Below, one piece after another: positions 593-34,749 of a DNA stretch of 64,000 bases. Under the pieces are notes generated by a model. The model had not been told where the DNA came from. It worked only from the letters and a program-made list of their open reading frames with translations, and did no database searches. The position numbers and the translations under genes were made by a program. Each line of letters begins with the position of its first letter. Within the stretch, counting starts at the first letter, position 1. Source of the DNA: Promethearchaeia archaeon (lineage in GTDB: Archaea > Asgardarchaeota > Lokiarchaeia > Sigyniarchaeales > SOKP01); the NCBI GenBank assembly GCA_029856045.1, contig JAHQWG010000047.1:32001-96000 (forward strand), read 5' to 3'.

Positions 593-3310
593 TCATATTT
601 TAATAATGAAGCTCAATATCTCTTGTGGATTTGATTCATAAGTAAATGAATTGTCATTCTCAATCTTCATCTCCTCAATTGGTAATTCTAATAAATTTAC
701 TTTTTTAACATTCTTAATTTTTTGATTGAATTTTACTGTACCTTTTGATTTTTTTCCAGATGTTTCTAATAATCTAATTAAGAGTCCATTATTTCCATCT
801 TCAGGTTTTTTAATTGATGTTACTATAAAATTTTCGGGTTCAATTGAAAAAAGACTAAATTCACTTCCTAATTTGCCCTTATTATGCTTGATCTTCCGAA
901 CAATCAAGGGTATGTTAAAATTTTGAGCTTCTCTAGCTATTAGGTTATTAGAAAAATCACCATTGTGTAAATATAAAGAGTATTTAAATGTATGATCTCC
1001 AATTGCATAAGCTTTAGGAATCCTATAAAAAGGTCCAGCCATGGCGGGAACAGTTCCATATATTATATTTGTAAGTAATCCAGTACTTCGCATTAGAGTC
1101 AGGAGGCAGGAGTCTTTATTTTTGCCAATTTCATATTCTGGTATTCCATAATTTATAATTGAAACTCCTTTTTTCTCCTTAATATTCGAAAAGTCCATCC
1201 AATTAATAACAGGTTTTATTCTATCATAATGTTCAAAATGTTTATTTATTTCCTTCCATGATTTTCCCACTTTTGGTTCAATATTTCGCTCAATAAATCC
1301 ATATGGAATTTCAGATCTTATAGTAGGGTTTGATATAGGTATTGGAAAACATGCTTGAATACGAATGTTTCTTATGTTATTGTAAAATATAGTAATAAAA
1401 TCAATTCTTACATCACCAAAATTAGGCATTATGATATATTGAGTGATTTCGTTAATTGATTTAAATAAAATCTTACTTTTGCATTTTAATTTCGCATTTA
1501 ATTTAACGACGGTTCTAACTGGTCCTTTTTCGAGAACTTCCAGTTGAAGATCATACATATGATGGATTTTTCCAATTCTTCCAATGTAATAACCATCTCC
1601 TCGATCATTGTGTATTCTTAAACCTCCAATTGAATATTTTCCTTTAGAATTAAGCTCAAATTTATCTTTTTTATTAAAAATACTAATTAATTTTCCATCT
1701 TTAAAACTCAATCTAAGAATATTATTTTCAATAGTTAGGGTGCTGATTTTTTTTTTTTCTAATATAGATTGCCCCTGATTTAAAGATTGGTTTTTCCTAA
1801 TGGAATATGAGGTATAACCGATTGGAGGAATATCTTTAGCCAAGAAAATGTAAGAATTTTCTTTCTCATTGATTTTTTCTTTTTGATAAGGGATTTGTTT
1901 ACCAATTTGATTTAATATACTAAATTCTTTTATTTCATTGGGTATTTTTATCTTTTCAATGCTTGTGCGTTCCCAAGAGAGTGGATTGAAGATTAAAAGG
2001 GGCATATCATTTTTTAAGATATTAGATGTATCTATATTTTTAATGAAATAACTTAATGCACTTTTAAATAGTCTTTTTAATTGTAATTCCGAGAGTTTTA
2101 ATTGCTTCATTATATTATCATATGCTGCATCTATATGAACTCCAGTTATTCCATCATGGAAATCACAACAAAGAATTCGATTAATAGCCTTATTAATTTC
2201 TTCTTTAGGATAAGGAATATTATTTAATAAATTGGATAATGTCGAAGATAATTCTGTTAAGTAAAATTGATTCTCTAAGAAACGTATTTGGTGCTTTAAT
2301 TTAGGTCGATTACCAAACGTTCCTGGGAATAAATCTGGAGGTCCTAAAAATTCATAGTTTTCTACAACACCAAATTTCTTCCTTGATTTTTTTAGAGCAG
2401 AGTGAAATTCTGAAGGAATTGCAATAATTACTTTATTTTTCTTATTTTTTTTGTTATAATAATCAACTGCATCAAGGATATTGGTACTCGGAGGAAGATT
2501 ATCTGTTCCATTTAAAATTAGAATATTATCAGTAGTTGACCTAACAATTCTATTTTTAATTGAAAACTTTAAGCCCCCCATATCCAATCCGAATACTGAA
2601 ATTCCTAACCCGGTGTTTGATAATCTACGAAAAATGTATTTAAATGGAGGAAAAATTTTTATTAAAAATTCATACACTCTGAAATTTTGTGGGATTACTT
2701 GGAGAGTTCCGGGAATTGGAACGAATGGAAAAATAGGAGGTAAAATCGTCATTGCAAAAGGAGGAGGTATATATGTATAAGTTGAATACATCCAATGAGT
2801 AAGAATTTTGGAACCATCGAAACTTTTCCACCAAAATTCTTGTGGGAGGCTTCTATTTCTTGCTCCTCTAACAAAAATAAAAAATTCAAAACCAGCTTTT
2901 TTTAATATCTGTGGAAGTTGGGGTGTTTGACCAAATGAATCAATAAGATATGCAATCTTTGAATCGATTCCAAAATGTTTTTTAAAATACCTACAACCAT
3001 ATAAAAATTGCCTTACAAGGCTTTCCCCGTTGGGTAAGAGAGTATCCGGAGCTACAATATCTCCTCCAATTAACTCAATTTTCCTTTCTTTCACCCGCTG
3101 TTGGAGTTCTTCCCACATATCAGGATGATTTATGCGAAAATATTCACAAGCCATCACTGAATCAATAATATAACGATATTTTTCATGTTTTCTCATAATC
3201 AGTAAGGCTTCTTTTATCAACTTAGCATTTTTGCTGCCCATTCCATCAGGTGTATCACACCATAAATAATCATAGTGAGAATGTGGAGATAAAAATATTT
3301 TTTTTCCCAT
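593..3310 (-). CDS. Glycoside hydrolase family 38 (alpha-mannosidase)
   Basis: HSHYDYLW Zn motif, IDSFGQ nucleophile, NGTDN, DFHD; 905 aa GH38 architecture. Confidence 0.9.
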   Translation of the reverse strand: MGKKIFLSPHSHYDYLWCDTPDGMGSKNAKLIKEALLIMRKHEKYRYIIDSVMACEYFRINHPDMWEELQQRVKERKIELIGGDIVAPDTLLPNGESLVRQFLYGCRYFKKHFGIDSKIAYLIDSFGQTPQLPQILKKAGFEFFIFVRGARNRSLPQEFWWKSFDGSKILTHWMYSTYTYIPPPFAMTILPPIFPFVPIPGTLQVIPQNFRVYEFLIKIFPPFKYIFRRLSNTGLGISVFGLDMGGLKFSIKNRIVRSTTDNILILNGTDNLPPSTNILDAVDYYNKKNKKNKVIIAIPSEFHSALKKSRKKFGVVENYEFLGPPDLFPGTFGNRPKLKHQIRFLENQFYLTELSSTLSNLLNNIPYPKEEINKAINRILCCDFHDGITGVHIDAAYDNIMKQLKLSELQLKRLFKSALSYFIKNIDTSNILKNDMPLLIFNPLSWERTSIEKIKIPNEIKEFSILNQIGKQIPYQKEKINEKENSYIFLAKDIPPIGYTSYSIRKNQSLNQGQSILEKKKISTLTIENNILRLSFKDGKLISIFNKKDKFELNSKGKYSIGGLRIHNDRGDGYYIGRIGKIHHMYDLQLEVLEKGPVRTVVKLNAKLKCKSKILFKSINEITQYIIMPNFGDVRIDFITIFYNNIRNIRIQACFPIPISNPTIRSEIPYGFIERNIEPKVGKSWKEINKHFEHYDRIKPVINWMDFSNIKEKKGVSIINYGIPEYEIGKNKDSCLLTLMRSTGLLTNIIYGTVPAMAGPFYRIPKAYAIGDHTFKYSLYLHNGDFSNNLIAREAQNFNIPLIVRKIKHNKGKLGSEFSLFSIEPENFIVTSIKKPEDGNNGLLIRLLETSGKKSKGTVKFNQKIKNVKKVNLLELPIEEMKIENDNSFTYESNPQEILSFIIKI

Positions 3311-21108: not shown

Positions 21109-21900
21109 ATGAAACGCGATCAAGAACTCATTGAACGACTTCAAAGGCATAATATTAAGGGAGTTATATTTGATTTTGATGGAGTGCTCCTTGACGTTAG
21201 AGAACCTCTTAATGAAGCAGTTGATAAGGTTTTCAATAAACGCTCTATTAATGTAAACATGGATGTTGCATTACAACAAATCGGTGCAGTTTTAGAATCA
21301 GTTCAAGGATATCCAATGTCCCAAATAATACTCCAATCTTACCAAATGTTCAAATACGTTACCGTGCTTGAAAATTACCGGTTATTTAAAAAATTAAGGA
21401 TTGCTATAGAAATTTTTGCTAAATATCAAGAACTTACAAAAGAAGCAAAATTCCATCTAGGCTCAAAATTACTTTTAGAAACTCTCTCAAAACATTGTGA
21501 TCTTTTTATTATATCACATAATATTACAGAAAGTGTCTTACGCCATTTAAAGCGGGAAGAACTTGAGGGTTATTTTCTAGATATTTACGGTCAAGATAAG
21601 CTCCCAGCACTAAAACCAGACCCTGCAAGTGTTGAACCTCCCTTGAATCATTACAAATCCTACACCAAAGAGGATTTTATTGTTATTGGAGATATGCCTT
21701 CAGATATTGAAGCAGGTAAAAAAGCAGGTTTCTGGACAATAGGAGTATTGAGTGGTCTTTGTAATAGGGAGCTTTTAGCTGAATACGAGCCAGATTTACT
21801 ATTAGAATCAATTGCTGATATCCTTACTTTGCTTGGAGTCGATACTGGTCGCATTACTAAATCTCAAGCTCATAAAAAGTTAAAAACAGAATCATCATGA
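21109..21900 (+). CDS. HAD-superfamily phosphatase
   Basis: FDFDGVL, SHN, KPDP, GDMPSD motifs. Confidence 0.9.
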   Translation: MKRDQELIERLQRHNIKGVIFDFDGVLLDVREPLNEAVDKVFNKRSINVNMDVALQQIGAVLESVQGYPMSQIILQSYQMFKYVTVLENYRLFKKLRIAIEIFAKYQELTKEAKFHLGSKLLLETLSKHCDLFIISHNITESVLRHLKREELEGYFLDIYGQDKLPALKPDPASVEPPLNHYKSYTKEDFIVIGDMPSDIEAGKKAGFWTIGVLSGLCNRELLAEYEPDLLLESIADILTLLGVDTGRITKSQAHKKLKTESS

Positions 21901-21911
21901 GGTAATAAAAA

Positions 21912-23585
21912 ATGGAAATGGAAGAAATCGATCTCGAAAGTTTGTCTATACAAACAACTAAAGCAGAAGAAATTAAAGATGAGAAGAAGCATGTCTCTGG
22001 CGCTTCAAAACAATTTCAAGAAATACTTAATTTTATCTTGAAATATAATCCGATTGATCCTTTAAATAGGCTGGTTAGGAAATTTTTCGGGACATTTGAT
22101 CTATTAGATAAAACCGATAGACTGTTTTATTGGGGTGCATTTCCAATAATTCGAAATATTTGTCGAATGTATTGGAATATGCGAGTTGAAGGAGAAATGT
22201 TTCCAGATTACGGTGGCGGAATAGTTGCATCAAATCATGTTTCACATTTAGATCCTTTCTTTGTCAGTTCAGCCGTTCAGAGACGAATTCGTTGGATGAG
22301 TAAAATTGAAAATTTTGAAACACCATTAGTGACGACACTCTTTACAAATCTTGGAGCTTTCCCCTTACATCGTGGGGAGCAAGATTTGAAAGCTTATAGT
22401 ACAGCAACAAAGATTATTTTAAACGGTGAATACTTAGGTATGTTTCCAGAAGGAACTCGTTCATATGATGGTATTCTCAAAGAAGAATTTCATACAGGTA
22501 CAATTCGATTAGCGGTAGAAACAGGTTGTCCAATTGTTCCAGCTTGCGTATTAGGAACCGCTGGTGCTTTGGCTAAGGGTAAATTATTAATGAAACCTAC
22601 ACAAGTGCTTGTTCGCATTGGAAAACCAATATATTACACTGATTACTACGCAAAAGAACTCACCTATCCAGATGCTAAGAAATTATCGGATGATCTCAGA
22701 GAAAAAATCAAAGATTTAATTCAAATGGGGTATAGCAAGGGATTAGAGAAAGATCCTGAGCTCTCTATAGAAAATCTATCAGATATGATAAAATTCCAAA
22801 AAAATGATGCATTGAAAAGTCATTTAAAACCCAAAACTACTGCTAAAAAAATTCTAAAATTCATCGATGATACATGGTATGGATTTTTGAGAGCTTTAGA
22901 AGTTTTTGATTTGCGAACACACTTTCAAGAAGCAATACAAATGTTTTCTGGAAACCTCGTGCATCAGTTGTGTAATACTTTAATTCCATATAAAACCATT
23001 GACTTCGATAAATATATTCCAAAAGAAGGAGCCGCCGTGATTGCTCCAAGTCATAATTCTGAATGGGACGTAATTATGATTGCTACAGCTATTACTCAAA
23101 AACCAAAACGAATATTACATCAGATGTCTAAACAATCACTATTCAGAACTCCGATTGTAAATGCATGGGTTAGGAATCATCATGCTTTCCCACTTAAACG
23201 AGGTGGACATGATGTAGAGAGTTTTCTTTATGCTAAAGAACTGCTAGAAGCCGAACAACTTGTGTGTACATATCCGGAGGGAACTACAAATCCTGGTAAT
23301 GGTCAACTTTTAGAAGGACATACAGGAGCTGTTCGATTAGCAATAGAGGCAAAAGTTCCAATCATTCCAGTTGGAATTACTGGTACTGAGAATATATACC
23401 CCAAACACGCAAAGATGCTCAATTTCGGAAAATCATGTGTATTGAAAGCGGGAGAACCTTTTATGGAACATGCAAAATATTGGGATGCACCAGAAATGCC
23501 ATCATTTGAAGTGTTAAAGGATTTAACAAGTAAAATGATGGCTCGAATTAAGGATTTACAAGTTTACAACTCACCAGGTCTGTAA
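21912..23585 (+). CDS. plsC: Tandem two-domain PlsC-family glycerolipid acyltransferase
   Basis: Domain 1 has NHVSHLD and FPEGTRS; domain 2 has SHNSEWD and YPEGTT. Confidence 0.9.
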   Translation: MEMEEIDLESLSIQTTKAEEIKDEKKHVSGASKQFQEILNFILKYNPIDPLNRLVRKFFGTFDLLDKTDRLFYWGAFPIIRNICRMYWNMRVEGEMFPDYGGGIVASNHVSHLDPFFVSSAVQRRIRWMSKIENFETPLVTTLFTNLGAFPLHRGEQDLKAYSTATKIILNGEYLGMFPEGTRSYDGILKEEFHTGTIRLAVETGCPIVPACVLGTAGALAKGKLLMKPTQVLVRIGKPIYYTDYYAKELTYPDAKKLSDDLREKIKDLIQMGYSKGLEKDPELSIENLSDMIKFQKNDALKSHLKPKTTAKKILKFIDDTWYGFLRALEVFDLRTHFQEAIQMFSGNLVHQLCNTLIPYKTIDFDKYIPKEGAAVIAPSHNSEWDVIMIATAITQKPKRILHQMSKQSLFRTPIVNAWVRNHHAFPLKRGGHDVESFLYAKELLEAEQLVCTYPEGTTNPGNGQLLEGHTGAVRLAIEAKVPIIPVGITGTENIYPKHAKMLNFGKSCVLKAGEPFMEHAKYWDAPEMPSFEVLKDLTSKMMARIKDLQVYNSPGL

Positions 23586-23608
23586 GTGGTTCGAGGTTTT
23601 CAACTAGA

Positions 23609-24727
23609 ATGCAGTCGAAGAAAACGACAAACCAACGAGAACTAAAACATTTAAAAGATGCATTGGAATCTTATCGATATGACCAGAAATCGAAGATCAA
23701 AGTGGGCATTCCCCGAGCTCTTCATTTTTATAGGTTTTTTCCTTTTTGGAAAAAATTATTGGAAGAGTTAGGTTGCGAACTTATACTTAGTCCTCACACT
23801 AATAAACAAATAGTGGAAGAAGGGGCTTTTCAAGGATTTGGGGAACTCTGCTTGCCTGTAAAAGTATATTATGGGCATACATTATATTTAATTAGAGAAC
23901 ATCCCGAATTGGATTATATTTTTGTCCCACGATATGTATCCGAGCGAGTAGAGGGATATTTTTGTCCTAAGTTTTTATCACTCCCCGACGTTATTAGAAC
24001 CTTGCCAAATATCCCCAAAATCTTAACCTTTACTGTTAATGTGAAAGAAAATCCAATCTCAAATTCAATTATTTCACTTGCTAAAACGCTTGGAAAAGGA
24101 CAACGCGAAGCCTTACAGGCATATGAAATAGCAAAAAAATACCATAAACAATATCAAGACTTCTTGAGAAAAGAAATCCCCGTCGGATATGCATTAAAAC
24201 TTGTAGAAAAAGACAAACCTTTTAAAATACTTAAAAAGAAAAGCCCTAAAAATATCAAATTTCTCTTACTTGGGCATGGATATAATATTTTTGATACCTT
24301 TGTAAATCTAGATTTTCAGAAAAAACTAACTAAACATGGAGTAGATGTGCTAACTATTGAAAATTTACCAGAAATTCTATTCAAGGAGCCAGTAATTATT
24401 AATAAGCAATTTAGACCGTATTGGCTTCATGAAGATGAAATCTTAGCCGCAGTTAGATATTTTCTAGTCCAAGGACGTAAAGAGATTGACGGAGTCATAT
24501 TTCTAATCAGCTTTGCGTGTGGTCCTGACAGTTTGATAGCTGAGTTAATTATGAGAGACATGAAAGTGATCGGGCTTCCTTTCTTGCAGATAATAATGGA
24601 TGAGCATACAGGTGAAGCTGGACTGCTAACAAGAATCGAAAGTTTCGTGGAAATGATTAAGCGGAAAAAAAGAAAACTAGATGCAATGAAAGAAAAGCAA
24701 GATTTAAAAATCTTTGAAGTAGCATAG
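23609..24727 (+). CDS. DUF2229 acyl-CoA dehydratase activase-related Fe-S protein (PlsA/Ger reductase-domain-like)
   Basis: VGIPRAL, CLPVKVYYGH, FCPKF, SFACGPD, DEHTGEAGLLTRIESF. Confidence 0.85.
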   Translation: MQSKKTTNQRELKHLKDALESYRYDQKSKIKVGIPRALHFYRFFPFWKKLLEELGCELILSPHTNKQIVEEGAFQGFGELCLPVKVYYGHTLYLIREHPELDYIFVPRYVSERVEGYFCPKFLSLPDVIRTLPNIPKILTFTVNVKENPISNSIISLAKTLGKGQREALQAYEIAKKYHKQYQDFLRKEIPVGYALKLVEKDKPFKILKKKSPKNIKFLLLGHGYNIFDTFVNLDFQKKLTKHGVDVLTIENLPEILFKEPVIINKQFRPYWLHEDEILAAVRYFLVQGRKEIDGVIFLISFACGPDSLIAELIMRDMKVIGLPFLQIIMDEHTGEAGLLTRIESFVEMIKRKKRKLDAMKEKQDLKIFEVA

Positions 24728-24986
24728 AAAAAAACGAAGGGAAATAAATTTATATGCAAAAAATTTATGGCAATTTAAATTTAAAGCGTCATTTTCTAAG
24801 AATTCTAAAAATATGAAATAATTCATAATTTTTTTATATGATCTTACCTATTTGTATAGAAAGTTATTTGAGAAAATATGTTTGCATTTAATTATTAAAA
24901 AACTCGAGAAAATAAAGTCTAATAGAGATATAGCTTAGAGCTAATGATTCAAAGTATAAAGATAGAAGAGGAGCAATAAGAATTTA

Positions 24987-26177
24987 ATGATAGTATCATT
25001 TCCAAACATGGGATATAGTTGGCCTGCTTTCAAGACTCTCATTGAGTGTATGGGTGTGAAAGTGGTATTACCAGATCCCACAAATCGTGAAGCTGTGAAA
25101 ATCGGAGTCAAATACTCTCCTGAGTTTGTCTGCTTTCCCTTTAAAGCAACTCTTGGAGATTTTGTAAGTGCGATTAAAAAGGGAGCGGATACTTTGGTTA
25201 TGGCTATAGATTGTGGCCCCTGTAGATTTGGATTTTACCATGCTGTTCAAGAACGTATTTTACATGATATGGGATATAAAGATGTCCGTGTGATACCTCT
25301 TGACCAAGCAGACTTATTAGAATTTAAATGGGTAAAAACCTTGTTTGAAGTAACTCCAACAAAAAATCTATTTCTATATACAAAAGCTGTTAAAGCAGTT
25401 CAATATTTTATAAAAAAAACCAAATATATTGATGATATTTCGACCGCAGAGGGATTAATCCGATGCTATGAACGAAATAAGGGGGATACCACTCGGGTTG
25501 TAAAGAAACTCCTAATAAAACTTGATGAAACTAATAAAATAAATGAATTACGCAAATTCAAATCTGTTATCACAAATGAGTTTAAAAAAATTGATATAGA
25601 CCGAAGCCGCAACCCTTTGAAAGTGGCATTATCAGGAGAGATCCATATCACATTAGAGCCAAATGATAATCTCGATATTCGTCGCAAACTCGGTGAAATG
25701 GGAGTTCAATTATATCAAAACCTAAGTGTTTACGATTGGGTTATTCATAAATTTCATTTAAATTATCATAGAAAATGGTTGGAATATTTAGCGCGTCCTT
25801 ATATGCCAATGGATATCGGGGGTGAAGCCGTATGGGTTATTGGCGAGTACATCGACAGAGCAAGGTCTGGTTTCGATGGTTTCATCCATGCATATCCTTT
25901 CACCTGTATGCCTGAGATCAGTGCTAGAACCATTATAACGAACGTATTACATAAAAAATATGATTTGCCAATAATTTACTTCTCATTTGATGAACATGCT
26001 GCTGAAAGTGGCTTCAGAACACGTTTAGAAGCGTTTGTAGATTTAATTCAAGGAAGGAGAGAACAAAAAAAACATAAGAAGGAAATTAAATTAGAAGAGA
26101 AATCAAAAGAGCCCTTATATGAGATTCATGGGGGTAGTCTATATAATAACATAGTGCAATTTATTCAAACAGGATAG
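24987..26177 (+). CDS. 2-hydroxyacyl-CoA dehydratase-like subunit (PlsR-like)
   Basis: FPNMG, CFPFKATLG, GPCRFGFY, GEIH, PFTCMPE, DEH...TRLEAF. Confidence 0.85.
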   Translation: MIVSFPNMGYSWPAFKTLIECMGVKVVLPDPTNREAVKIGVKYSPEFVCFPFKATLGDFVSAIKKGADTLVMAIDCGPCRFGFYHAVQERILHDMGYKDVRVIPLDQADLLEFKWVKTLFEVTPTKNLFLYTKAVKAVQYFIKKTKYIDDISTAEGLIRCYERNKGDTTRVVKKLLIKLDETNKINELRKFKSVITNEFKKIDIDRSRNPLKVALSGEIHITLEPNDNLDIRRKLGEMGVQLYQNLSVYDWVIHKFHLNYHRKWLEYLARPYMPMDIGGEAVWVIGEYIDRARSGFDGFIHAYPFTCMPEISARTIITNVLHKKYDLPIIYFSFDEHAAESGFRTRLEAFVDLIQGRREQKKHKKEIKLEEKSKEPLYEIHGGSLYNNIVQFIQTG

Positions 26178-26190
26178 GTATTTATGAAAT

Positions 26191-27219
26191 ATGGTTCAAG
26201 TTAACGAAAAAATACACGTGTCAAAAGATGGAAAGCGTGATAGTTATCTAGGTATAGATGTTGGGTCGGTTACTCTCAAATTTGTATTAATGGATAATGA
26301 TCAAAGGGTTTTATCTAATGTTTTTTTGCGAAATCAAGGCAGTCCAATAGATTCCGTCAAACTTGGAATGGCAGAAATGAGGAGTAAAATTGAGAAAAAT
26401 CCAGAGCTGCAGGAATATGCAATAAGAGCTTGCGGAACAACAGGGTCAGCAAGATATTTAACCAAGGCGGTGGTCGGAGGAGACCTTGCCAAAACGGAGA
26501 TTATAGCTCACGCGGTAGCAACCCAATCGATGTACCCTGATGTGAGAACGATCTTGGAAATTGGGGGTCAGGACTCTAAAATAATAATTTTAAGAGATGG
26601 AATCATTGTGGACTTCGCTATGAATTCTGTATGTGCAGCTGGGACTGGTAGTTTTCTCGATCACCAAGCAACTCGCCTTAATATTCCAATTGAGGATTTT
26701 GGTGATTATGCCGTGAATTCAAAAAATCCTGCTTCAATTGCTGGTCGATGCACGGTGTTTGCAGAATCGGACATGATTCACAAGCAAAATGCTGGATATT
26801 CAAAGGAGGATATTATTGCTGGGTTATGCGATTCTTTAGTAAGGAATTATTTAAATAATTTATCAAAAGGAAAAGATTTGGAAGAGCCTATTGTATTTCA
26901 AGGAGGAGTTTCATCTAATAAGGGTATTATTAAATCATTTGAACGACATTTAGGTTGTAAAATAACTGTTCCTGGGGGAGGTTTGAATGTATTAATGGGA
27001 GCGCTTGGAATGGCAATTCTTTCACGAGAATATTATATAAATAATGAAATTGATACAGTGTTTAGAGGGCTTAGAATGACTGATATTGATTTTAGGACGA
27101 GAACATTCAATTGTGGGGATTGCCCTAATAATTGTTCCATAGTAGAATGCTCCATCGTTGAAACTAATGAAGTTATTGCCAGATGGGGTAGCAGATGCGG
27201 TAAATGGGAAGTATTCTAA
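26191..27219 (+). CDS. CoA-substrate-specific enzyme activase (BadF/BadG/BcrA/BcrD ASKHA ATPase)
   Basis: GIDVGS, EIGGQDSK, CAAGTGSFL, RCTVFAESD, FQGGV; C-terminal CxxCxxxC...RC. Confidence 0.92.
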   Translation: MVQVNEKIHVSKDGKRDSYLGIDVGSVTLKFVLMDNDQRVLSNVFLRNQGSPIDSVKLGMAEMRSKIEKNPELQEYAIRACGTTGSARYLTKAVVGGDLAKTEIIAHAVATQSMYPDVRTILEIGGQDSKIIILRDGIIVDFAMNSVCAAGTGSFLDHQATRLNIPIEDFGDYAVNSKNPASIAGRCTVFAESDMIHKQNAGYSKEDIIAGLCDSLVRNYLNNLSKGKDLEEPIVFQGGVSSNKGIIKSFERHLGCKITVPGGGLNVLMGALGMAILSREYYINNEIDTVFRGLRMTDIDFRTRTFNCGDCPNNCSIVECSIVETNEVIARWGSRCGKWEVF

Positions 27220-27344
27220 GGAGGAGAGAAACGATAGAGAGATTTAATATTATTTCCAGAATTATAGATTATTTTTCGGTCAATAAATTCTTTATATATA
27301 TTGTAAGGTTAAAAAAAAATGAATAAAAAAGAGTTGTTTTAGAG

Positions 27345-27539
27345 ATGTCCAAATTTTTTGAACAATTAATTGATATGGGAAAAGAATATTTAGACACTTT
27401 AAAGCATAAGACAAAATTATCAACCATATTTGATTATTTTACGGAAACAGTGATACCGAATTTTGTATCTGAGAAAGATTTAAAATCATTTTATGAAAAA
27501 CGTATGGATGAATTAAATGAATTTATATATAAATTGTAA
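27345..27539 (+). CDS. Small helical hypothetical protein
   Basis: 64-aa ORF, co-oriented and 16 nt upstream of the next gene. Confidence 0.6.
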   Translation: MSKFFEQLIDMGKEYLDTLKHKTKLSTIFDYFTETVIPNFVSEKDLKSFYEKRMDELNEFIYKL

Positions 27540-27555
27540 AGAGAGGTAAAGAAAT

Positions 27556-28341
27556 ATGGAATCGAATAGTAATGAAAAATCTGAGATAACAAAAGTTGAT
27601 AAGCCAGTTTCTCTTGAAGAAGAAAAGGAGTCCGAGAAAGTGAATATGAAAGCGGTGACTGGTGATTTACTTTATGGAGCCTTAAAATATATTGGTGGTT
27701 CTGCGTTAATGTTATTTAACGATTTAGCAATTAACGGCCAGGAAAATGTTCCGTTGTTCGGAAAAGCAATTCTTTCAACGATTAGTAAAAATGTGATGCT
27801 TGATATGCTCATCATAAGTCAAGTATCCGGAAGAAAGATACATTTTATGTTGCCCGTAAAACTAATAAGAAATCCTGTTGCTGGGCCAGTTTTAAAGATG
27901 TTAGGAATGTTTCGAAGTACAGAGAATAAGGAAGATATGGAGCCTATCGAGAAAGTTTTCGATTATTTAAACAAAAAGGGTGATCTTGTGGCGATGACAC
28001 CTCAAGCGAAAGCATCTGACGAGGTGCAGCTCAAGTCAATGGCAGCGATTATAAAGTTTGCAGTTGCTGCTGATGCACCAATAATTCCTTTAGCGATATA
28101 TACAGAACAGAAGACGTTGTTTAACATCATTCCTAGTACTAAGCTAAAAATGAAGATTGGTACTCCAATTAATTTCGATAAGAAATTAAATAAGGATAAA
28201 TTTAGAGACGAGAGATATAAACAAGCTGCGGAAATCATAAAGATTATCGATGTTCTTCGGATTGAAAGTAAGGAAGAAGCCGAGAGAGAAGAAAAAGAAA
28301 AGGAAAAAGAAAAAGAAGAAAAGAAAAATCAGAAAGTTTAA
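27556..28341 (+). CDS. PlsC-fold protein with degenerate catalytic motifs
   Basis: GQENVP, IHFM, APIIP, KIGTPI fit the fold; HX4D is replaced (SKNVMLD) and PEG reads PQA. Confidence 0.75.
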   Translation: MESNSNEKSEITKVDKPVSLEEEKESEKVNMKAVTGDLLYGALKYIGGSALMLFNDLAINGQENVPLFGKAILSTISKNVMLDMLIISQVSGRKIHFMLPVKLIRNPVAGPVLKMLGMFRSTENKEDMEPIEKVFDYLNKKGDLVAMTPQAKASDEVQLKSMAAIIKFAVAADAPIIPLAIYTEQKTLFNIIPSTKLKMKIGTPINFDKKLNKDKFRDERYKQAAEIIKIIDVLRIESKEEAEREEKEKEKEKEEKKNQKV

Positions 28342-28387: not shown

Positions 28388-29068
28388 TTATTCACCTTCT
28401 AATATTACAGGGTTTGATAAAGTCCCAATTTTTTCGATTGTTGCTTCAATTAGGTCTCCGGGTTTAATTGGACTTATTCCGCTTGGAGTGCCAGTTGCGA
28501 TTATATCGCCCGGTTCCATTGTAAAAAACTTACATATATAATGTAAGATTTCCGGAACATTGAATAGAAGGTTTTTAGTGTTTGATGATTGTTTTATTTC
28601 TCCATTTAGCTTTAATTCAATTTTCAAGTTATGGGGATCTGAAATTGTATTTGTATCAACAATCTTAGGACCTATTGGTCCAAATGTATCGAGGCTTTTT
28701 GAGCGAAACCATGGTTTATTTGAGGCATAATCCTTTATTTGCATTTTGCGGGCGGTTACATCATTAAATATTGTGTATCCTAAGATATGGTCGTATGCAT
28801 CTTCAATAGAAACATTTTTGCATTTATCTTTTATAATAAAAGCTAGTTCTACTTCATAATCCACGCGATTGTATTTTCGATTTTCATATAACATTTTAGG
28901 ATATACGATTGGTTCTTTGTTTTGGATTAGGCAATTTAGAGATTTTGTGAATAATACGGGTTCAGTGGGCAGGGCTTGTCCGGGTCTCGTTTCTTCGATG
29001 TGATCTTTATAATTGAGACCTAAGCATATTATTTTTGTAGGGTTTATCTCAATGTCTCCAATTAACAT
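28388..29068 (-). CDS. Fumarylacetoacetate hydrolase family protein
   Basis: KIICLGLNY, DYEVEL, NDVTAR, GDIIATGTP. Confidence 0.92.
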   Translation of the reverse strand: MLIGDIEINPTKIICLGLNYKDHIEETRPGQALPTEPVLFTKSLNCLIQNKEPIVYPKMLYENRKYNRVDYEVELAFIIKDKCKNVSIEDAYDHILGYTIFNDVTARKMQIKDYASNKPWFRSKSLDTFGPIGPKIVDTNTISDPHNLKIELKLNGEIKQSSNTKNLLFNVPEILHYICKFFTMEPGDIIATGTPSGISPIKPGDLIEATIEKIGTLSNPVILEGE

Positions 29069-29241
29069 AAATACTCATAATTTTCTGAAATTAAAATACT
29101 TTCTGTCTAAAAAAGAGCAAGATATGCATTATCAAAATTTTTTAATTATCAAAATTTGTTTATTTCGAACTAATATATAAGTATAAAAACTTAGTTTTTT
29201 ACTATATTAATTGTCAAATAAAAATTTTAAGGGCGTGAAAA

Positions 29242-29595
29242 TTGGCAAGATACTGTAATATATGTAAAAGAAATGTGGTACCAAAATCTCCAGATTTCAA
29301 TGTTGGGGCCTTTCTCCTTCTATTTTGTTGTACTGGGTGTTTATGGATTCTTTATTTAATTTATTATGTCTTACAATCACCTGTCTGTCCATTTTGTGGG
29401 AGTACTTCTTTTTCACCAGCTCAGCCAGAAGTATTTGCTCCAACTACTCAACCAGTACCACAAACAATCATTATAACACCCCCATCAAATACGGCTGATA
29501 TTCCTCCTAAAAGGGAGTATAAATTTTGTCCTCTATGTGGAGCTGAATTATCATCTGAAGTAATTTATTGCCCTAACTGTGGAACTAAAATATAA
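29242..29595 (+). CDS. Zinc-ribbon membrane protein
   Basis: CxxC pair flanking a hydrophobic hairpin, plus a C-terminal CPLC/CPNC ribbon. Confidence 0.75.
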   Translation: MARYCNICKRNVVPKSPDFNVGAFLLLFCCTGCLWILYLIYYVLQSPVCPFCGSTSFSPAQPEVFAPTTQPVPQTIIITPPSNTADIPPKREYKFCPLCGAELSSEVIYCPNCGTKI

Positions 29596-29605
29596 ATTCT
29601 TTTTT

Positions 29606-30202
29606 TCATTTTTCTTCAATATTTTTCTTTTTAAAATTACCTTGTTCATTAAAGAAACTCATACCAGGGCAATTATTCCAATCAGCTTTATATTCACATC
29701 TTTTACATATTCTATAGGTTCCGTATCCATGGTACGCATTTAATATGGATAGTAATATGAAAAAAGTAATTCCAAATATAATAAAATTGACACTATTTGG
29801 ATTTGGTGAGGTAAATATACTCCAGAAAAGAAAACCAGCTCCAACACCGATTGAAATCTTAGATATAATTTTAATGGATTTTCTTTTTGTTAAGCCAAAT
29901 AGACTGAGTAAAAAACTGGATAATAAAATAATTGAAATTATTAACAAATCCGTAGGAACTAAAATATTGAATATTCCCGTAAAAGGTAAAGTAATAATTG
30001 TAATTATTGCAGTTGGGTATCCAATAAAGCATCCAATGCAGAAATCGATTCCTTTAATTTTAAATGTATGTCCTTCAAATTTTTCACATATTGGATGATG
30101 TCTTAACAAAAGTGGTTTTGCTGAATTGAATGCTGTTTTTATTCTTTGTTTTATTGATAATTTTGAATTTTTATCGTTATTAGAGTTCGAATTTGAAGTA
30201 AT
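29606..30202 (-). CDS. Membrane protein with His/Cys motifs (DUF2085-like)
   Basis: HHPIC...CIGC, 4 TM, CKRC...C. The frame extends upstream of the track start to an ATT at 30202 behind GAGGCTG. Confidence 0.65.
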   Translation of the reverse strand: MTSNSNSNNDKNSKLSIKQRIKTAFNSAKPLLLRHHPICEKFEGHTFKIKGIDFCIGCFIGYPTAIITIITLPFTGIFNILVPTDLLIISIILLSSFLLSLFGLTKRKSIKIISKISIGVGAGFLFWSIFTSPNPNSVNFIIFGITFFILLSILNAYHGYGTYRICKRCEYKADWNNCPGMSFFNEQGNFKKKNIEEK

Positions 30203-30266
30203 AATTGACAGCCTCGTATAAAAGTTCGTGATAAAAGTGTTATTTCATAATAAATTAATAATAGAA

Positions 30267-31364
30267 TTAAATCCTTTTTTTTAAAATATTCGCTTGTTCC
30301 TTAAACGTATATGAAAAAAAGTTCTTATAACTTTCACAAAAGTATGTTTTTTCTGGATGTGGATTATCTGTGAAAAATCTATCTTTGAGACATCCTCCGA
30401 AACACAATTTTTTCCATTCACATTCCAAGCAGTCTTGAGGAAGTTTTTCTTTTTGTATGGCAAATGTAGTGTTGCGTTTTTCAATTAATTCTGCAAAACT
30501 ATTTTGCATTATATTCCCTAATTTATATTTTTCATATACAAAAAAATCACAAGGATATATATCTCCGTTCCATTCTACAACCATATAATTTGCACATTTT
30601 TCCTCGAGAGCGCAGTATCCTTTTGGATATCCTAAATGACCAGCCAAAGTTGCATCGAAAGTTCTTATTGATGCTTTTCGATTAGAATTTATCCACTCGT
30701 CGTAGAGGTCACATAAAAATTTACCATACTGGGATGCATTAATGCAATAAGATGCTTTTTTTCCTGTCTTATCTGCTTCAAGAGCGGGAATAAATTGCAA
30801 ATAATAAAAACCGTTATCAATGAAGAAATTATAAACCTCCCTAACTCGATTGACATTTGCTTTACTTACGACACATAATATATTGAATTCTACATTGTTT
30901 TTTTTTAAGCATTCAGTGGTTTTCATTACTTTTTCCCAAATTGACTTACTGCCAATACTTTTTCTATAACGATCATGGATTTGCTTAGGACCATCAAGAC
31001 TTAAGCCAATCAAAAAGTGATATTCATTAAAAAATTTTCCCCAATCATCGTTAATAAGAATTCCATTAGTTTGAAGAGCATTTCCAATTACTTGCCCAGA
31101 GATACCATACTGTTGTTGGAATTCTACAACTTTTTTATAGAAATTGAGCCCAATTAAAGTAGGTTCCCCGCCTTGCCAATTGAAAACAGATTCATTAAAA
31201 CGATATTGCAAGAATTTTGATATTATTCTTTCGAGAACTTTATAATCCATACGAGGGTGTACATTATTTGAATATAAATCAGCCACTCTCAAATAAAAAC
31301 AATACTTGCATCTTAGATTACAATCAAAAGAGACTGGTTTAATTAAAAGTTGGAAAGGTTCCAT
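30267..31364 (-). CDS. Anaerobic sulfatase maturase (radical SAM/SPASM)
   Basis: KPVSFDCNLRCKYCFY, WQGGEP, YPCDF, CxxC...C.GGC. Confidence 0.9.
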   Translation of the reverse strand: MEPFQLLIKPVSFDCNLRCKYCFYLRVADLYSNNVHPRMDYKVLERIISKFLQYRFNESVFNWQGGEPTLIGLNFYKKVVEFQQQYGISGQVIGNALQTNGILINDDWGKFFNEYHFLIGLSLDGPKQIHDRYRKSIGSKSIWEKVMKTTECLKKNNVEFNILCVVSKANVNRVREVYNFFIDNGFYYLQFIPALEADKTGKKASYCINASQYGKFLCDLYDEWINSNRKASIRTFDATLAGHLGYPKGYCALEEKCANYMVVEWNGDIYPCDFFVYEKYKLGNIMQNSFAELIEKRNTTFAIQKEKLPQDCLECEWKKLCFGGCLKDRFFTDNPHPEKTYFCESYKNFFSYTFKEQANILKKRI

Positions 31365-31408
31365 TATTGATTTAGGTTTTAAATTTAAATATTTATTTAT
31401 ATTGAAAT

Positions 31409-32176
31409 TTATTTTTTATTGTATTCAATTTCGACAATTTCAACAATTTTTGGAAGAATTTCTGCGATACTTCCATGTATGACAACAAGACATTGATGGT
31501 CAATATTTGTTTTTTCTCTATTTATTATGCCTAATTTGGCATCAACGTTTAAAGCTTTATATGGTAAAAAATTTGCCGGTGATACTAAAAGGCTTGTGCC
31601 CAAAATCATCATTAAGTCACAGTTTGCAATTAGGTCATCAGTTCTTTCAAGTGCTTCTATAGGTAATTGTTCTCCAAAAAAAACTGCATTTGGTTTTAAA
31701 ATACCACCACAATCAGGACATTTTGTTGATGGGTTTCTACTTAATAATTGAGTAACTAGAGTTGTTATAGGAAATATTTTTCCACATTTCCCCATGCATA
31801 TCGCTTCATTTATACTACCGTGTAATTCAATTACATTTTTAGTATGAGCTCTTTTGTGTAGACCATCTATATTCTGGGTCATTAACCCATTTAATTTTCC
31901 CATTTTTTGCAATTTTGTCAGGCTTTTATGGCCTGCATTTGGTTTAGCTTTAATCATATTAAGACCCATTTCTAACATCGTCTTATAGAACGCAGTTGGA
32001 TTTCGCGTAAAAGTAGATATATCTGCAAATGAAGGATCCATTCGCTCCCACAATCCTGTGCCGGGACTGCGAAAATCTGGAATACCGCTTTCTGTGGACA
32101 TCCCCGCTCCAGTAAGCGCTAATATATTTTCTGATTCAAGTATTAATTCAGCAAATTTTTGAAATTTTTCTTTCAT
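31409..32176 (-). CDS. cobB: Sir2-family NAD-dependent deacylase
   Basis: TGAGMSTESGIPDFRS, TQNIDGLH, ELHG, zinc ribbon, GTSL. Confidence 0.92.
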   Translation of the reverse strand: MKEKFQKFAELILESENILALTGAGMSTESGIPDFRSPGTGLWERMDPSFADISTFTRNPTAFYKTMLEMGLNMIKAKPNAGHKSLTKLQKMGKLNGLMTQNIDGLHKRAHTKNVIELHGSINEAICMGKCGKIFPITTLVTQLLSRNPSTKCPDCGGILKPNAVFFGEQLPIEALERTDDLIANCDLMMILGTSLLVSPANFLPYKALNVDAKLGIINREKTNIDHQCLVVIHGSIAEILPKIVEIVEIEYNKK

Positions 32177-32259
32177 TTCTTTTCAATACAATTCTTTTGG
32201 AATTTAATTTTATTATATTTGTTAATATCTTAAATAAATATTGATATAATGAATAAGGT

Positions 32260-34749
32260 TTAAATTTTAAAAGTTCGAATTTTCCATGGATTAATTTTAT
32301 CTATTCGATTTTTTTTAGATTTTATTTCATTGTAATTAAAATTGATTTCTCTTAGTTGTTTTCTAACTAATGCTCCTTCAAATTGGATATTATTTTGTTT
32401 ATCACTGGGATTAAATATACGTAAATAGGAATTATTTTTCCGTCTCCATAAGTTAATAAGTTTAACCGGTTGGTTTATTGTAAGAAATGACATAGATTTC
32501 TTTTCAAATTTATAATTATTATTAATTCTTATCCCCAATAATCTAAATTGAAATGAATTTGTATAGTTTAAGGCAGAATGTAATTCATCCCCATTAGTAA
32601 TTGATAAAGCAAATTCAAATCTTCCCTTAGAAGTTAAAAAATTACGTATTTTGAAATTATGACGGTCAATATGGAATTTCTGACTATTTTTTTGCATGAA
32701 AATAATGCCTTCATTTTTTCCTTTTAACCATAGAAAGTCAAGCGCCTTAATATTTGTTCTTTTTGTCTCTTCGATACCAAATGGATAATTAATAAAAACT
32801 TTTGAAATCTTAATTTTGGGAATAAGTATTATTTCTCTTAATAAATTAGAATCCAAATTGAATTCAAGTCTATTCACACCGTTATATTGAATAAGTTCAA
32901 TTTGGAAAGTTTTTTCATCCAATTCTCCGGTCAATATGAATTTTTCTTCAATGTTATCTTTATAATGCTTCTTTATTGATAGGTTGTAATCAAATTTTGA
33001 TTGAAATTTCAATTCACATACATTTTTATCCTTATATTTTATCTCAATTGTTTTATGATCTTCCAGAATTTTCACTATATAAGAATAAACTGTATTTGGT
33101 TTAGAGATTTTAGCATTTTGTTGAGTTAATGAATATATCTTGAAACCTATTCCTGGGATTTCAGCCATAAATTTTAAGGTAGAATTTTGATATTGAAAGG
33201 GAATTTCTTCATTATCTTCAATAAGTCTCATTTTGGAAGGATTTTCTAACCATAATTGAATTGAAAAGGCATCTCGTCTCGGAATTGCCGTCGGGTTGAA
33301 TATTAGAAAACTGATATTATTGTTTTTAATAACTTTAGTTTTTGAGCCCAATTTTTCTGCTAATTTAGAAAGAGCCTCACGAGAATAATCTCTACATCGA
33401 TTTTGGATTTCATTCTGTAATTTAAGACTTAATTCAGAAATTGAAATTTTATCATATTCTATCTCCAATTTATGTAATTCTTCACGACTCAATTGTTGCG
33501 CAGAATAGTCTCCTGATCGTATAAATGGAACCGCATAATTATCATGGGCTTGAGTAAGTAATAGTTTCTTCCACAAATCATCAAAAAAAAAATCACTTGA
33601 TGTTTCATTATATAACCCCAAAATGCAATTTAAAATCTCGGCAGATAATAAACTAATCTCACATTTTTTATTATTAAGGAATAGTTCATTTGAAACAAAG
33701 ATACTATCTGCTAATACGAAATTATCCCGGAGAAATTTGAACTCTCCATCCTTTTCAATTTTTTGAAAAAATTCAGAACATGAAATAAATTTTCCAAATA
33801 TCTCAGAAAATCTCGAAATCCTCCAAATCTCTTCTTGATAAGGTTGTGGCATAATAAAATCCTCAATGGAAGAATATACAATGGAATTCATGAATGGACG
33901 AGAAACAGATTGAAATAAAAGATTTGGGATTTCTTTAAAAAATGTTCCATGCCAATATTCTCCATTAAAAACTCCAGACTGCTCTGTGATTGTATTTATT
34001 TTAGTATTGTCTAAACCAATCCAATCGATATTTCCAGAGGGGGTAGTAGGATTTAATCCAATAAGCCGCGTCCTTAAAGAACCAAATTCAATTTCAAATC
34101 CTTTTAAAATTTGAGGGATTTGAGGATATATCGAACTTTCTGAACAATAATAAATCTTGCAATCTAATCCCAATTGTTTTAATACATTTAATCCGTATTC
34201 GAATTGCTTAATATTCGACTCCGCACCAATGATTAAACTGTATGGTTGTGAAAAAGTAGGATTAATTATCTCAAACCTACCGAGTTTAAATAATCTTAAA
34301 AATTCTGAGATTTTTTCGGGATATTTTTTATTCAACCATTCCAAACAACTTATTGCAATTTCAATATGATAGGGCATATTGGTCTTAATTGCGAGTTCCA
34401 TTTTTTCTAACAAGCGATTTATTGCAAATTTTGGAGAGTCAAATTCACAAAAACCAAGATCATTGATTATTACACCTCCATGACCTCCAATAATGAAAAA
34501 TAATTCTGGATGGAATTCTCGCTTGACAATTAACTTTAATTTTCTTAAAATGATTTTAAATAAATTATATTTCGATTCATTATCTTTATCTTTTAAACAT
34601 TTTAATTGATTTACTTTTTCTTTAATATTCTTAAAATTAATTTTATACTTCTTAATTGGATTCTTATTGGAAAAATCTTTAATTAAATTAATAACTCTGT
34701 CAAGGGCTAAAATATCTTCAATATCTATTTTTGAATTGTTACTTTTCAT
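32260..34749 (-). CDS. Divergent GH38-like (alpha-mannosidase fold) protein
   Basis: PQIPQIL, WIGLDNT, QAHD, FNP, YPFG match GH38, but HxD and the nucleophile Asp are altered. Confidence 0.7.
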   Translation of the reverse strand: MKSNNSKIDIEDILALDRVINLIKDFSNKNPIKKYKINFKNIKEKVNQLKCLKDKDNESKYNLFKIILRKLKLIVKREFHPELFFIIGGHGGVIINDLGFCEFDSPKFAINRLLEKMELAIKTNMPYHIEIAISCLEWLNKKYPEKISEFLRLFKLGRFEIINPTFSQPYSLIIGAESNIKQFEYGLNVLKQLGLDCKIYYCSESSIYPQIPQILKGFEIEFGSLRTRLIGLNPTTPSGNIDWIGLDNTKINTITEQSGVFNGEYWHGTFFKEIPNLLFQSVSRPFMNSIVYSSIEDFIMPQPYQEEIWRISRFSEIFGKFISCSEFFQKIEKDGEFKFLRDNFVLADSIFVSNELFLNNKKCEISLLSAEILNCILGLYNETSSDFFFDDLWKKLLLTQAHDNYAVPFIRSGDYSAQQLSREELHKLEIEYDKISISELSLKLQNEIQNRCRDYSREALSKLAEKLGSKTKVIKNNNISFLIFNPTAIPRRDAFSIQLWLENPSKMRLIEDNEEIPFQYQNSTLKFMAEIPGIGFKIYSLTQQNAKISKPNTVYSYIVKILEDHKTIEIKYKDKNVCELKFQSKFDYNLSIKKHYKDNIEEKFILTGELDEKTFQIELIQYNGVNRLEFNLDSNLLREIILIPKIKISKVFINYPFGIEETKRTNIKALDFLWLKGKNEGIIFMQKNSQKFHIDRHNFKIRNFLTSKGRFEFALSITNGDELHSALNYTNSFQFRLLGIRINNNYKFEKKSMSFLTINQPVKLINLWRRKNNSYLRIFNPSDKQNNIQFEGALVRKQLREINFNYNEIKSKKNRIDKINPWKIRTFKI

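Follow-up and report, generated by a model that had tools for sequence, protein, structure and literature searches.

A fusion of two divergent, probably active PlsC-type acyltransferases encoded beside Ger-like reductase genes in Lokiarchaeia

Introduction

How a host with isoprenoid ether membranes gave rise to eukaryotes with fatty-acyl ester membranes, the lipid divide, is an open problem. Asgard homologs of the acyltransferases PlsC and PlsY and of the reductase Ger are already published. The subject of this study is a single gene that encodes two PlsC-type units in one polypeptide (hereafter the fusion), together with the genes around it, in a 64,000-nucleotide (nt) stretch of DNA from a Promethearchaeia archaeon (class Lokiarchaeia, order Sigyniarchaeales, family SOKP01; assembly GCA_029856045.1, contig JAHQWG010000047.1, positions 32,001 to 96,000). 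This whole stretch is referred to as the window.

The closest described enzyme is TmPlsC (PDB 5kym), the 1-acyl-sn-glycerol-3-phosphate acyltransferase of Thermotoga maritima, with which each unit of the fusion shares the fold, two N-terminal helices, and motifs I–IV. Unlike TmPlsC, the fusion has two units per chain, carries PEGT-T-N in place of PEGT-R in its C-terminal (C) unit, and is found in an archaeal host whose genome yields no acyl carrier protein (ACP). The Asgard PlsC homologs of Villanueva et al. 2017 and Coleman et al. 2019 (PMC6431249) belong to the same superfamily and the same organisms and are very likely the same genes; a homolog from the marine-sediment metagenome record LCGC14_1041950 is among the matches of the fusion. 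In their accessible portions, both papers use PlsC as a presence/absence marker and mention neither a fusion, nor paralog types, nor a linkage to Ger, and Coleman et al. judge a membrane role unlikely (PMC6431249, accessible portion).

The genes downstream of the fusion resemble a second group of described systems, Ger and PlsA/PlsR (the anaerobic plasmalogen synthase), through a shared set of Pfam domains. The glycerol ester reductase Ger, known from T. maritima and D. alkenivorans, is defined by the domains PF01869, PF09989, and PF06050, and Ger homologs have already been reported in Lokiarchaeota (PMC13159169). Unlike Ger and PlsAR, the putative reductase described here is split into three genes with just one activase domain among them, and these genes are closely linked to that of a double acyltransferase.

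Two further systems are comparable in architecture or function. OlsF, the bifunctional ornithine-lipid synthase, likewise combines two acyltransferase domains in one chain for two successive acylations (10.1101/2022.08.18.504050). Unlike the units of the fusion, the OlsF domains are mutually unrelated (an N-acyltransferase and an HX5D O-acyltransferase), and the OlsF model scores just 15 bits against the fusion, compared with a cutoff of 620. The mycobacterial enzymes PlsM and PlsB2 each acylate both glycerol-3-phosphate (G3P) and lysophosphatidic acid (LPA) in an acyl-coenzyme A (acyl-CoA)-dependent, PlsB/PlsC-like pathway of an organism without PlsX/PlsY (PMC10593935); they are separate proteins, unlike the fusion, and the comparison made here is one of proposed function. 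No description of the two-unit fusion, its origin from two paralogs, or its near-constant pairing with DUF2229 genes was found in the searchable literature, the coverage of which is incomplete.

Results

Architecture and conservation of the fusion

Both units of the 557-amino-acid (aa) protein belong to the PlsC/AGPAT (LPLAT) superfamily PF01553, in that model cutoffs are passed, motifs I–IV are present, and the fold is TmPlsC-like. PF01553 matches the protein twice (Pfam, E 8.7e-55, 184.6 bits against a cutoff of 23), and TIGR00530 (AGP_acyltrn) matches it in two stretches (NCBIfam, 154.4 bits against a cutoff of 102.95). Aligned to each other, the two halves are 31% identical over 189 aa (E 3e-24). 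Among 36 aligned homologs about 50–60% identical to the window protein, the invariant positions of the N-terminal (N) unit are H109, D114, R154, F178, P179, E180, T182, R183, P207, and P210, with G181 conserved in 35 sequences; those of the C unit are H381, D386, R430, Y454, P455, E456, G457, T458, N460, and P483. Motif II (F-x-x-x-R) corresponds to F150/R154 in the N unit and F426/R430 in the C unit, and the motif IV proline to P207/P210 and P483, respectively. Mean pairwise identity is 0.65 and 0.69 in the two cores, compared with 0.43 for residues 273–305 around the linker. A reading of the DNA made from the sequence alone (the sequence-only reading) had claimed a single polypeptide with two PlsC domains, both keeping HX4D and PEG, and the double PF01553 match and the invariance of these motifs bear it out.

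The fusion is not an artefact of assembly or of a frameshift, since the single open reading frame (ORF) recurs in at least 80 species-level genomes. The window has a G+C content of about 30%, and archaeal genes, encoding a family B DNA polymerase and a RadA/Rad51-like protein, lie beside the fusion.

The AlphaFold2 model of the whole protein (mean predicted local distance difference test score, pLDDT, 79; predicted template modeling score, pTM, 0.72) contains two units, residues 36–272 and 306–557, with the first 33 residues and the linker (residues 275–303) disordered. In the N unit, helices at residues 48–61 and 65–88 precede the core, and the top structural match (Foldseek, VIA-align) is TmPlsC (Z 21.8, 218 aligned residues, root mean square deviation 3.8). 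The C unit folded by itself has a pLDDT of 86.6 and a pTM of 0.84, and its top match is again 5kym (Z 19.6, 221 residues aligned, including the helical element). As modeled, each unit appears to be a complete TmPlsC-like module, composed of a two-helix membrane-interface element and an alpha/beta core with motifs I–IV. No transmembrane helix was found in the fusion by a 19-residue Kyte-Doolittle scan, in which the highest value, 1.39, lies inside a core; with no 19-residue segment at transmembrane hydrophobicity, the protein is therefore predicted to be peripheral rather than membrane-spanning, with the cytoplasmic membrane face as its likely place of action.

Origin from two paralogs

In a maximum-likelihood tree of 80 PF01553 domains, the N-type and the C-type form two distinct clades, with support of 100/99 and 100/100, respectively. 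The ten sampled fused N units fall on one side of a single branch (91/96), as do the ten fused C units (100/100). In the sister family of the same order, the N-type and C-type are found as separate adjacent genes, one in each clade (loci L049 and L053), and this split pair lies immediately upstream of the same series of DUF2229, DUF2229, and activase genes. The tree and the stand-alone relatives together indicate that the protein truly arose by fusion of two Asgard paralogs of the PlsC/AGPAT family that had diverged long ago. A recent internal duplication was rejected as its source: the halves are too divergent, and they belong to separate well-supported clades that also occur as stand-alone genes.

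Motif retention differs between fused and split C-type domains. HX4D and PEG are both lost in the split C-type genes of the sister family and in P0307. In a second set of sequences, HNSEWD is retained by all 23 fused C units, one of them having it in the form HSSEWD, and so is YPEGTT, with N as the next residue in 22. Since the same motifs can decay, their strict retention in the fusion points to selection and to catalysis by the C unit. A stand-alone C-type protein with intact motifs also exists, P0130 of ‘Promethearchaeota archaeon CR_4’.

Named matches to the C-type profile above 270 bits are archaeal, mostly with Asgard labels, and are followed by bacterial PlsC-like proteins at 158 bits or less; most matches are unnamed, and the C-type is probably Asgard-specific. 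A eukaryotic affinity of the C-type was set aside on these same matches, which are weak evidence because so few are named.

Proteins with more than one PF01553 domain are found elsewhere. P0252 (444 aa), P0264 (434 aa), and P0276 (470 aa), all from metagenomes, contain two domains each. Because both domains in each protein are mutual closest relatives, these are independent internal duplications, and the tandem PlsC architecture has evolved separately at least three more times. Relatives of P0276 occur on contigs of up to 699 kb. The proteins P0245 and P0385, of about 860–870 aa, have three domains; one is labeled Promethearchaeota and the other Helarchaeota.

Distribution

The fusion is found in 37 of the 40 genomes from the window's own GTDB family within a sample of 200 genomes across the phylum. 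The sister family has single-domain relatives in 3/3 genomes, one fragment was found elsewhere, and the remaining 24 families of this sample contain no relative at E ≤ 1e-20. Most family genomes of the sample have no strong PF01553 match beyond the two fused domains. When one genome was scanned for each GTDB species, 127 contained a relative; the best 80 of these 127 relatives are all full-length fusions, nearly all from Promethearchaeota metagenome-assembled genomes. The closest proteins form about 120 clusters, all 548–575 aa in length and generically annotated as lysophospholipid or 1-acyl-G3P acyltransferases, and those with a named source are Asgard (‘Promethearchaeota,’ ‘Lokiarchaeota,’ and similar). 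Short identical contigs covering 21913–23024 and 25095–25350 are present in a marine-sediment run labeled metatranscriptomic; the run is flagged as probably DNA and gives no evidence either way on expression, and no RNA data set is listed as containing the gene.

Gene neighborhood

The fusion lies in a same-strand run of genes with short spacers (21109–28341) that consists of a HAD phosphatase gene, the fusion, two DUF2229 genes, an activase gene, a 64-aa ORF, and a third PF01553 gene (Table 1). The neighbors together carry the Ger-defining set of PF01869, PF09989, and PF06050, the PF06050 matches falling just under the Pfam cutoff.

Table 1. Positions of the fusion, its units and motifs, and the genes clustered with it (window coordinates).
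Feature	Position	Strand	Details
Fused two-unit PlsC/AGPAT-family acyltransferase (P0001)	21912..23585	+	ATG start; 557 aa
N unit, residues 36–272	22017..22727	+	Two long helices, then alpha/beta core (model); N-type paralog
N unit motif I HX4D, H109–D114 (NHVSHLD)	22236..22253	+	H109 and D114 in 36/36 sequences
N unit motif III FPEGTR, F178–R183 (FPEGTRS = 178–184)	22443..22460	+	R183 in 36/36
Linker, residues 275–303	22734..22820	+	Predicted disordered, pLDDT < 50; poorly conserved
C unit, residues 306–557	22827..23582	+	Two long helices, then alpha/beta core (model); C-type paralog, probably Asgard-specific
C unit motif I HX4D, H381–D386 (SHNSEWD)	23052..23069	+	H381, S383, E384, W385, and D386 in 36/36
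C unit motif III YPEGTTN, Y454–N460	23271..23291	+	No Arg after PEGT; T459 in 35/36, N460 in 36/36
HAD-IA type phosphatase	21109..21900	+	PF13419, E 2.8e-22; ends 11 nt upstream of the fusion
DUF2229 + HGD-D protein 1 (Ger/PlsA-like reductase part 1)	23609..24727	+	PF09989, E 8e-45; PF06050 sub-threshold, 27.8 bits against 28.4; starts 23 nt downstream of the fusion
DUF2229 + HGD-D protein 2 (reductase part 2)	24987..26177	+	Pfam
BcrAD_BadFG/acyl-CoA dehydratase activase-type ATPase (PlsR-like)	26191..27219	+	PF01869, E 1.5e-43; TIGR00241, 187 bits against a cutoff of 125
Conserved 64-aa ORF	27345..27539	+	tblastn identity 55–86% in relatives, same order
Third PF01553 protein, putative pseudo-acyltransferase	27556..28341	+	PF01553, E 3.9e-8; SKNVMLD for HX4D, TPQAKAS for PEG

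The conservation of this arrangement was counted over the best 80 species-level loci, restricted in each case to those with enough flanking sequence. The first DUF2229 gene is directly downstream of the fusion in 60/69 loci and within 8 kb in 66/69, and the HAD gene is directly upstream in 44/74 and within 8 kb in 64/74. A second DUF2229 gene is found downstream in 14 of 26 loci and the 64-aa ORF, to which no Pfam family matched, in 11 of 26. The only NCBIfam models that match the HAD protein, those of PpaX and phosphoglycolate phosphatase, do so below their thresholds. In some relatives, the cluster is broken by 2–4 kb of other DNA, at locus L042 between the DUF2229 genes and at L046 between the second of these and the activase gene, and it is consequently not always one uninterrupted operon; in the window, the two DUF2229 genes are separated by a gap of 259 nt (24728–24986).

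The third PF01553 protein looks non-catalytic, having neither the catalytic histidine nor PEG. Phylogenetically, it groups with the third domain of the three-domain proteins P0245 and P0385 (support 100/99). Downstream of it, on the opposite strand (28388–34749), are genes for a fumarylacetoacetate hydrolase-family protein, a radical SAM/SPASM protein, a Sir2 deacylase, and a large GH38/GH57-like protein. The window also contains, at 593–3310, a gene for a full GH38 alpha-mannosidase.

Acceptor sites of the two units

One characteristic distinguishing the two units is the residue that follows PEGT in motif III. The acyl acceptor (G3P or LPA) is bound through motifs II and III; directly after PEGT, AGPAT1–5, GPAT1, and DHAPAT have Arg and LPCAT1/2 have Cys, and this Arg is essential in AGPAT1 and GPAT1 (PMC4280512). 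GPAT3/4 carry FPEGTCIN (PMC6353168). In the fusion, the Arg, a trait of LPA acyltransferases, is present in the N unit only (R183), its place in the C unit being taken by Thr (T459), a pattern shared across the C-type clade. This invariant difference, PEGT-R in one unit and PEGT-T-N in the other, fits a use of two different acceptors without assigning either acceptor to either unit.

In a profile search of the PDB, the C-type matched TmPlsC only (71 bits), and the N-type matched TmPlsC at 94 bits and GPAT1 at 39 bits. An identification of the C unit as a GPAT was considered, as in a whole-protein structural comparison the C unit had drawn the GPATs and the N unit TmPlsC. It was dropped as evidence after the C unit folded alone ranked TmPlsC first (Z 19.6, as against 14.8–16.6 for GPATs) and the C-type profile returned no GPAT.

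Models of more specific acyltransferases were not reached. The E. coli-type PlsC equivalog NF011593 scored 56.6 bits against a cutoff of 501. An Aas-type acyl-ACP:phospholipid O-acyltransferase was rejected (NF006386, 106 bits against a cutoff of 1221; no AMP-binding domain by Pfam), as were the OlsF/OlsA ornithine-lipid acyltransferases (NF052615, NF052552, and NF052553, 15–25 bits against cutoffs of 300–620).

Lipid genes of the host genome and its relatives

The genome containing the window (55 contigs totaling 3.34 Mb; marker completeness 100%) has four PF01553 domains in all: the two fused domains, the putative pseudo-enzyme, and a 251-aa protein; none is on a PlsB-sized ORF. Neither PlsY nor PlsX was found in this genome, and no ACP-type PP-binding domain was found. 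No PlsY was seen in 18 other sampled fusion-bearing genomes of the family either. The genome encodes GGGPS, several 3-hydroxyacyl-CoA dehydrogenases, and two homologs of the CDP-archaeol synthase CarS (G000:C32:105681-106271 and G000:C27:254600-255385; 145 and 157 bits against a cutoff of 148). The second CarS homolog could in principle activate a non-canonical phosphatidate. Matches to PF01210 and PF13685 in this genome are 3-hydroxyacyl-CoA, prephenate, and alcohol dehydrogenases.

The 251-aa PF01553 protein is encoded outside the cluster (G000:C34:13189-13941; L061:7190-7942). Its motifs are intact (HEGGYD and FPEGN), it sits on a very long branch of the tree, and its gene neighbors encode a Gtr1/RagA-like GTPase, an NAD kinase/diacylglycerol kinase-like protein, an aminotransferase, and a 3-hydroxyacyl-CoA dehydrogenase.

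The ORFs with PlsY-like domains in family f1 are about 405 aa long, double the length typical of PlsY (G171:C6:56828-62954 and G077:C106:5555-8769). Three or four such ORFs occur in a row in some f1 genomes, and G171 and G077 are the same two genomes that are without DUF2229. The Asgard family f5 presents the combination opposite to that of the window's family: single-chain Ger-like proteins of about 1400 aa in 20/21 genomes (G074:C1:2344950-2345576; G026:C1), PlsY in 21/21 with up to three or more genes, and PF01553 in 0/21.

Discussion

We tentatively favor a reading in which the fusion carries out two successive acyl-CoA-dependent acylations of a glycerol-phosphate backbone and feeds the neighboring ester reductase. 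The pattern of conservation supports both modules being under selection for catalysis while differing at the acceptor site. From the sequences, we infer the activity of both units on different acceptors, along with the identity of those acceptors, the order of reaction, and the coupling to the reductase. The two O-acylations would take place in succession on one backbone, either G3P or glycerol-1-phosphate (G1P), and the donor is probably acyl-CoA since the genome is without ACP. The product would be a diacyl, phosphatidate-like lipid, in which the co-operonic split Ger/PlsA-PlsR-like iron-sulfur reductase would then turn an ester bond into an ether; the phosphatase encoded upstream probably acts on a phosphorylated intermediate. 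Parts of this scheme have published precedents, in OlsF for two acylations by one chain, in PlsM and PlsB2 for the use of both G3P and LPA, and in bacterial PlsY and PlsC for tolerance of either glycerol-phosphate stereoisomer. A more complete scheme, in which a self-sufficient two-step acyltransferase and the split Ger/PlsAR-like reductase would make fatty-acid ester/ether glycerolipids, possibly on G1P, without PlsB, PlsX/PlsY, or ACP, we consider unlikely.

Several observations weigh against two-step acylation of glycerol phosphate. Profile and fold both place the two units nearest to the LPA acyltransferase TmPlsC, and neither is specifically GPAT-like. PlsY-like genes accompany the fusion in 21/40 family genomes, and the first acylation may therefore not be the task of the fusion in every genome. 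Nor is the fusion strictly dependent on the reductase, because two complete genomes of the family, G077 and G171, keep the fusion and the pseudo-acyltransferase gene and have no DUF2229 gene. In the window's own genome no bacterial-type CdsA was found, only the two CarS homologs, and no GpsA equivalog is among the PF01210 matches. The best FGGY kinase passes the XylB cutoff and not that of GlpK, and an ORF resembling G1P dehydrogenase (C36:166700-167764) is weak, at 120 bits against a cutoff of 413. There appears to be no clear G3P source among the matches examined, and this weak ORF is the only one found that resembles G1P dehydrogenase. Finally, lipid analysis of the cultured Lokiarchaeon gave archaeal lipids only, as discussed in the accessible portion of PMC13400652.

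Some of these points bear equally on a somewhat less probable explanation, that both units are lyso-lipid acyltransferases with different acceptors, neither using free glycerol phosphate, and that another enzyme adds the first chain. One unit could, for example, act on lyso-phosphatidic acid and the other on a 1-O-alkyl-glycerol phosphate derived from the reductase or on geranylgeranylglyceryl phosphate (GGGP), giving ether/ester hybrids or remodeled lipids. The proximity of both units to an LPA acyltransferase rather than to GPATs speaks for this explanation, as do the PlsY-like genes found together with the fusion in about half of the family genomes. GGGPS and the two CarS homologs imply that mono-ether glycerol phosphates are available, and bacterial PlsY and PlsC accept both glycerol-phosphate stereoisomers, according to the accessible portion of PMC13400652. 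However, PlsY is missing from the window's genome and the 18 others noted above, and with neither PlsX nor PlsB in the window's genome no known enzyme would supply a first acyl chain, a difficulty avoided only with an isoprenoid ether as acceptor. Moreover, the conserved partner is of the ester reductase type, whose reaction requires an ester at the site of reduction.

The acceptor might also lie outside the glycerol-phosphate lipids altogether, with two acyl groups being added to a head-group sugar or inositol (as by PatA), an amino-lipid (as by OlsA), or a soluble metabolite of the neighboring radical enzymes. PatA and LpxM-type enzymes of the PF01553 fold family are indeed among the structural matches (Z 10–13), HAD/BCR-family enzymes usually use CoA thioesters, and the want of a clear G3P source and of CdsA would find an explanation. 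We regard this as improbable, however: the Arg of motif II is retained in both units and that of PEGT-R in the N unit, in motifs tied to G3P/LPA binding (PMC4280512); PatA and LpxM are structurally much poorer matches than TmPlsC and the GPATs; the lyso-ornithine-lipid and OlsF models fall far below their cutoffs; and the DUF2229 proteins whose function has been tested, Ger and PlsA, are lipid ester reductases. More improbable still is an arrangement in which a single unit matters for catalysis in vivo, with its neighbor serving as a structural or regulatory pseudo-dimer partner not yet stripped of its motifs. Non-catalytic PlsC-fold proteins do exist in the same clusters (the gene at 27556–28341 and the degenerate C-type of the sister family), and the pTM of the whole model may indicate a defined packing of the units. 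Yet the catalytic and acceptor residues of both units are invariant at about 50% identity, the same residues have decayed in the split relatives, and the two cores are equally conserved.

These considerations leave two-step acylation of glycerol phosphate as the reading we tentatively prefer, and they qualify the functional claims of the sequence-only reading. It had proposed that one protein could replace PlsB, or PlsX/Y plus PlsC. This is plausible for the window's own genome, where both units look competent and neither PlsY, PlsX, nor a PlsB-sized PF01553 ORF was found; the PlsY-like genes in part of the family do not agree with it as a general rule. The related proposal of acylation at both sn-1 and sn-2 is compatible with the invariant motif III difference, which fits two acceptors, and goes beyond the results in naming positions, none of which they assign to a unit. 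Hybrid lipids may be made by acylation of archaeal lyso-ether lipids, an idea that falls under the lyso-lipid explanation above and that the data neither favor nor disfavor. The most telling clue, the retention of Ger/PlsA-like genes next to the fusion, had been overlooked by the sequence-only reading.

Earlier listings of PlsC, PlsY, and Ger in Asgard genomes presented scattered markers of doubtful function, and here one gene product is defined across a whole family. It has two non-equivalent units per chain, is often the only PlsC-type enzyme of its genome, and is kept beside an ester-reductase-like system, in a compact gene set that can be directly expressed and assayed. A negative assay would remove a recurrent argument on eukaryote origins, and a positive one would show that Lokiarchaeia can make non-isoprenoid glycerolipids. 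If the more complete, self-sufficient scheme were true, the nearest relatives of eukaryotes known so far would possess an archaeal pathway to membrane lipids of a bacterial-like, eukaryote-like, or hybrid kind.

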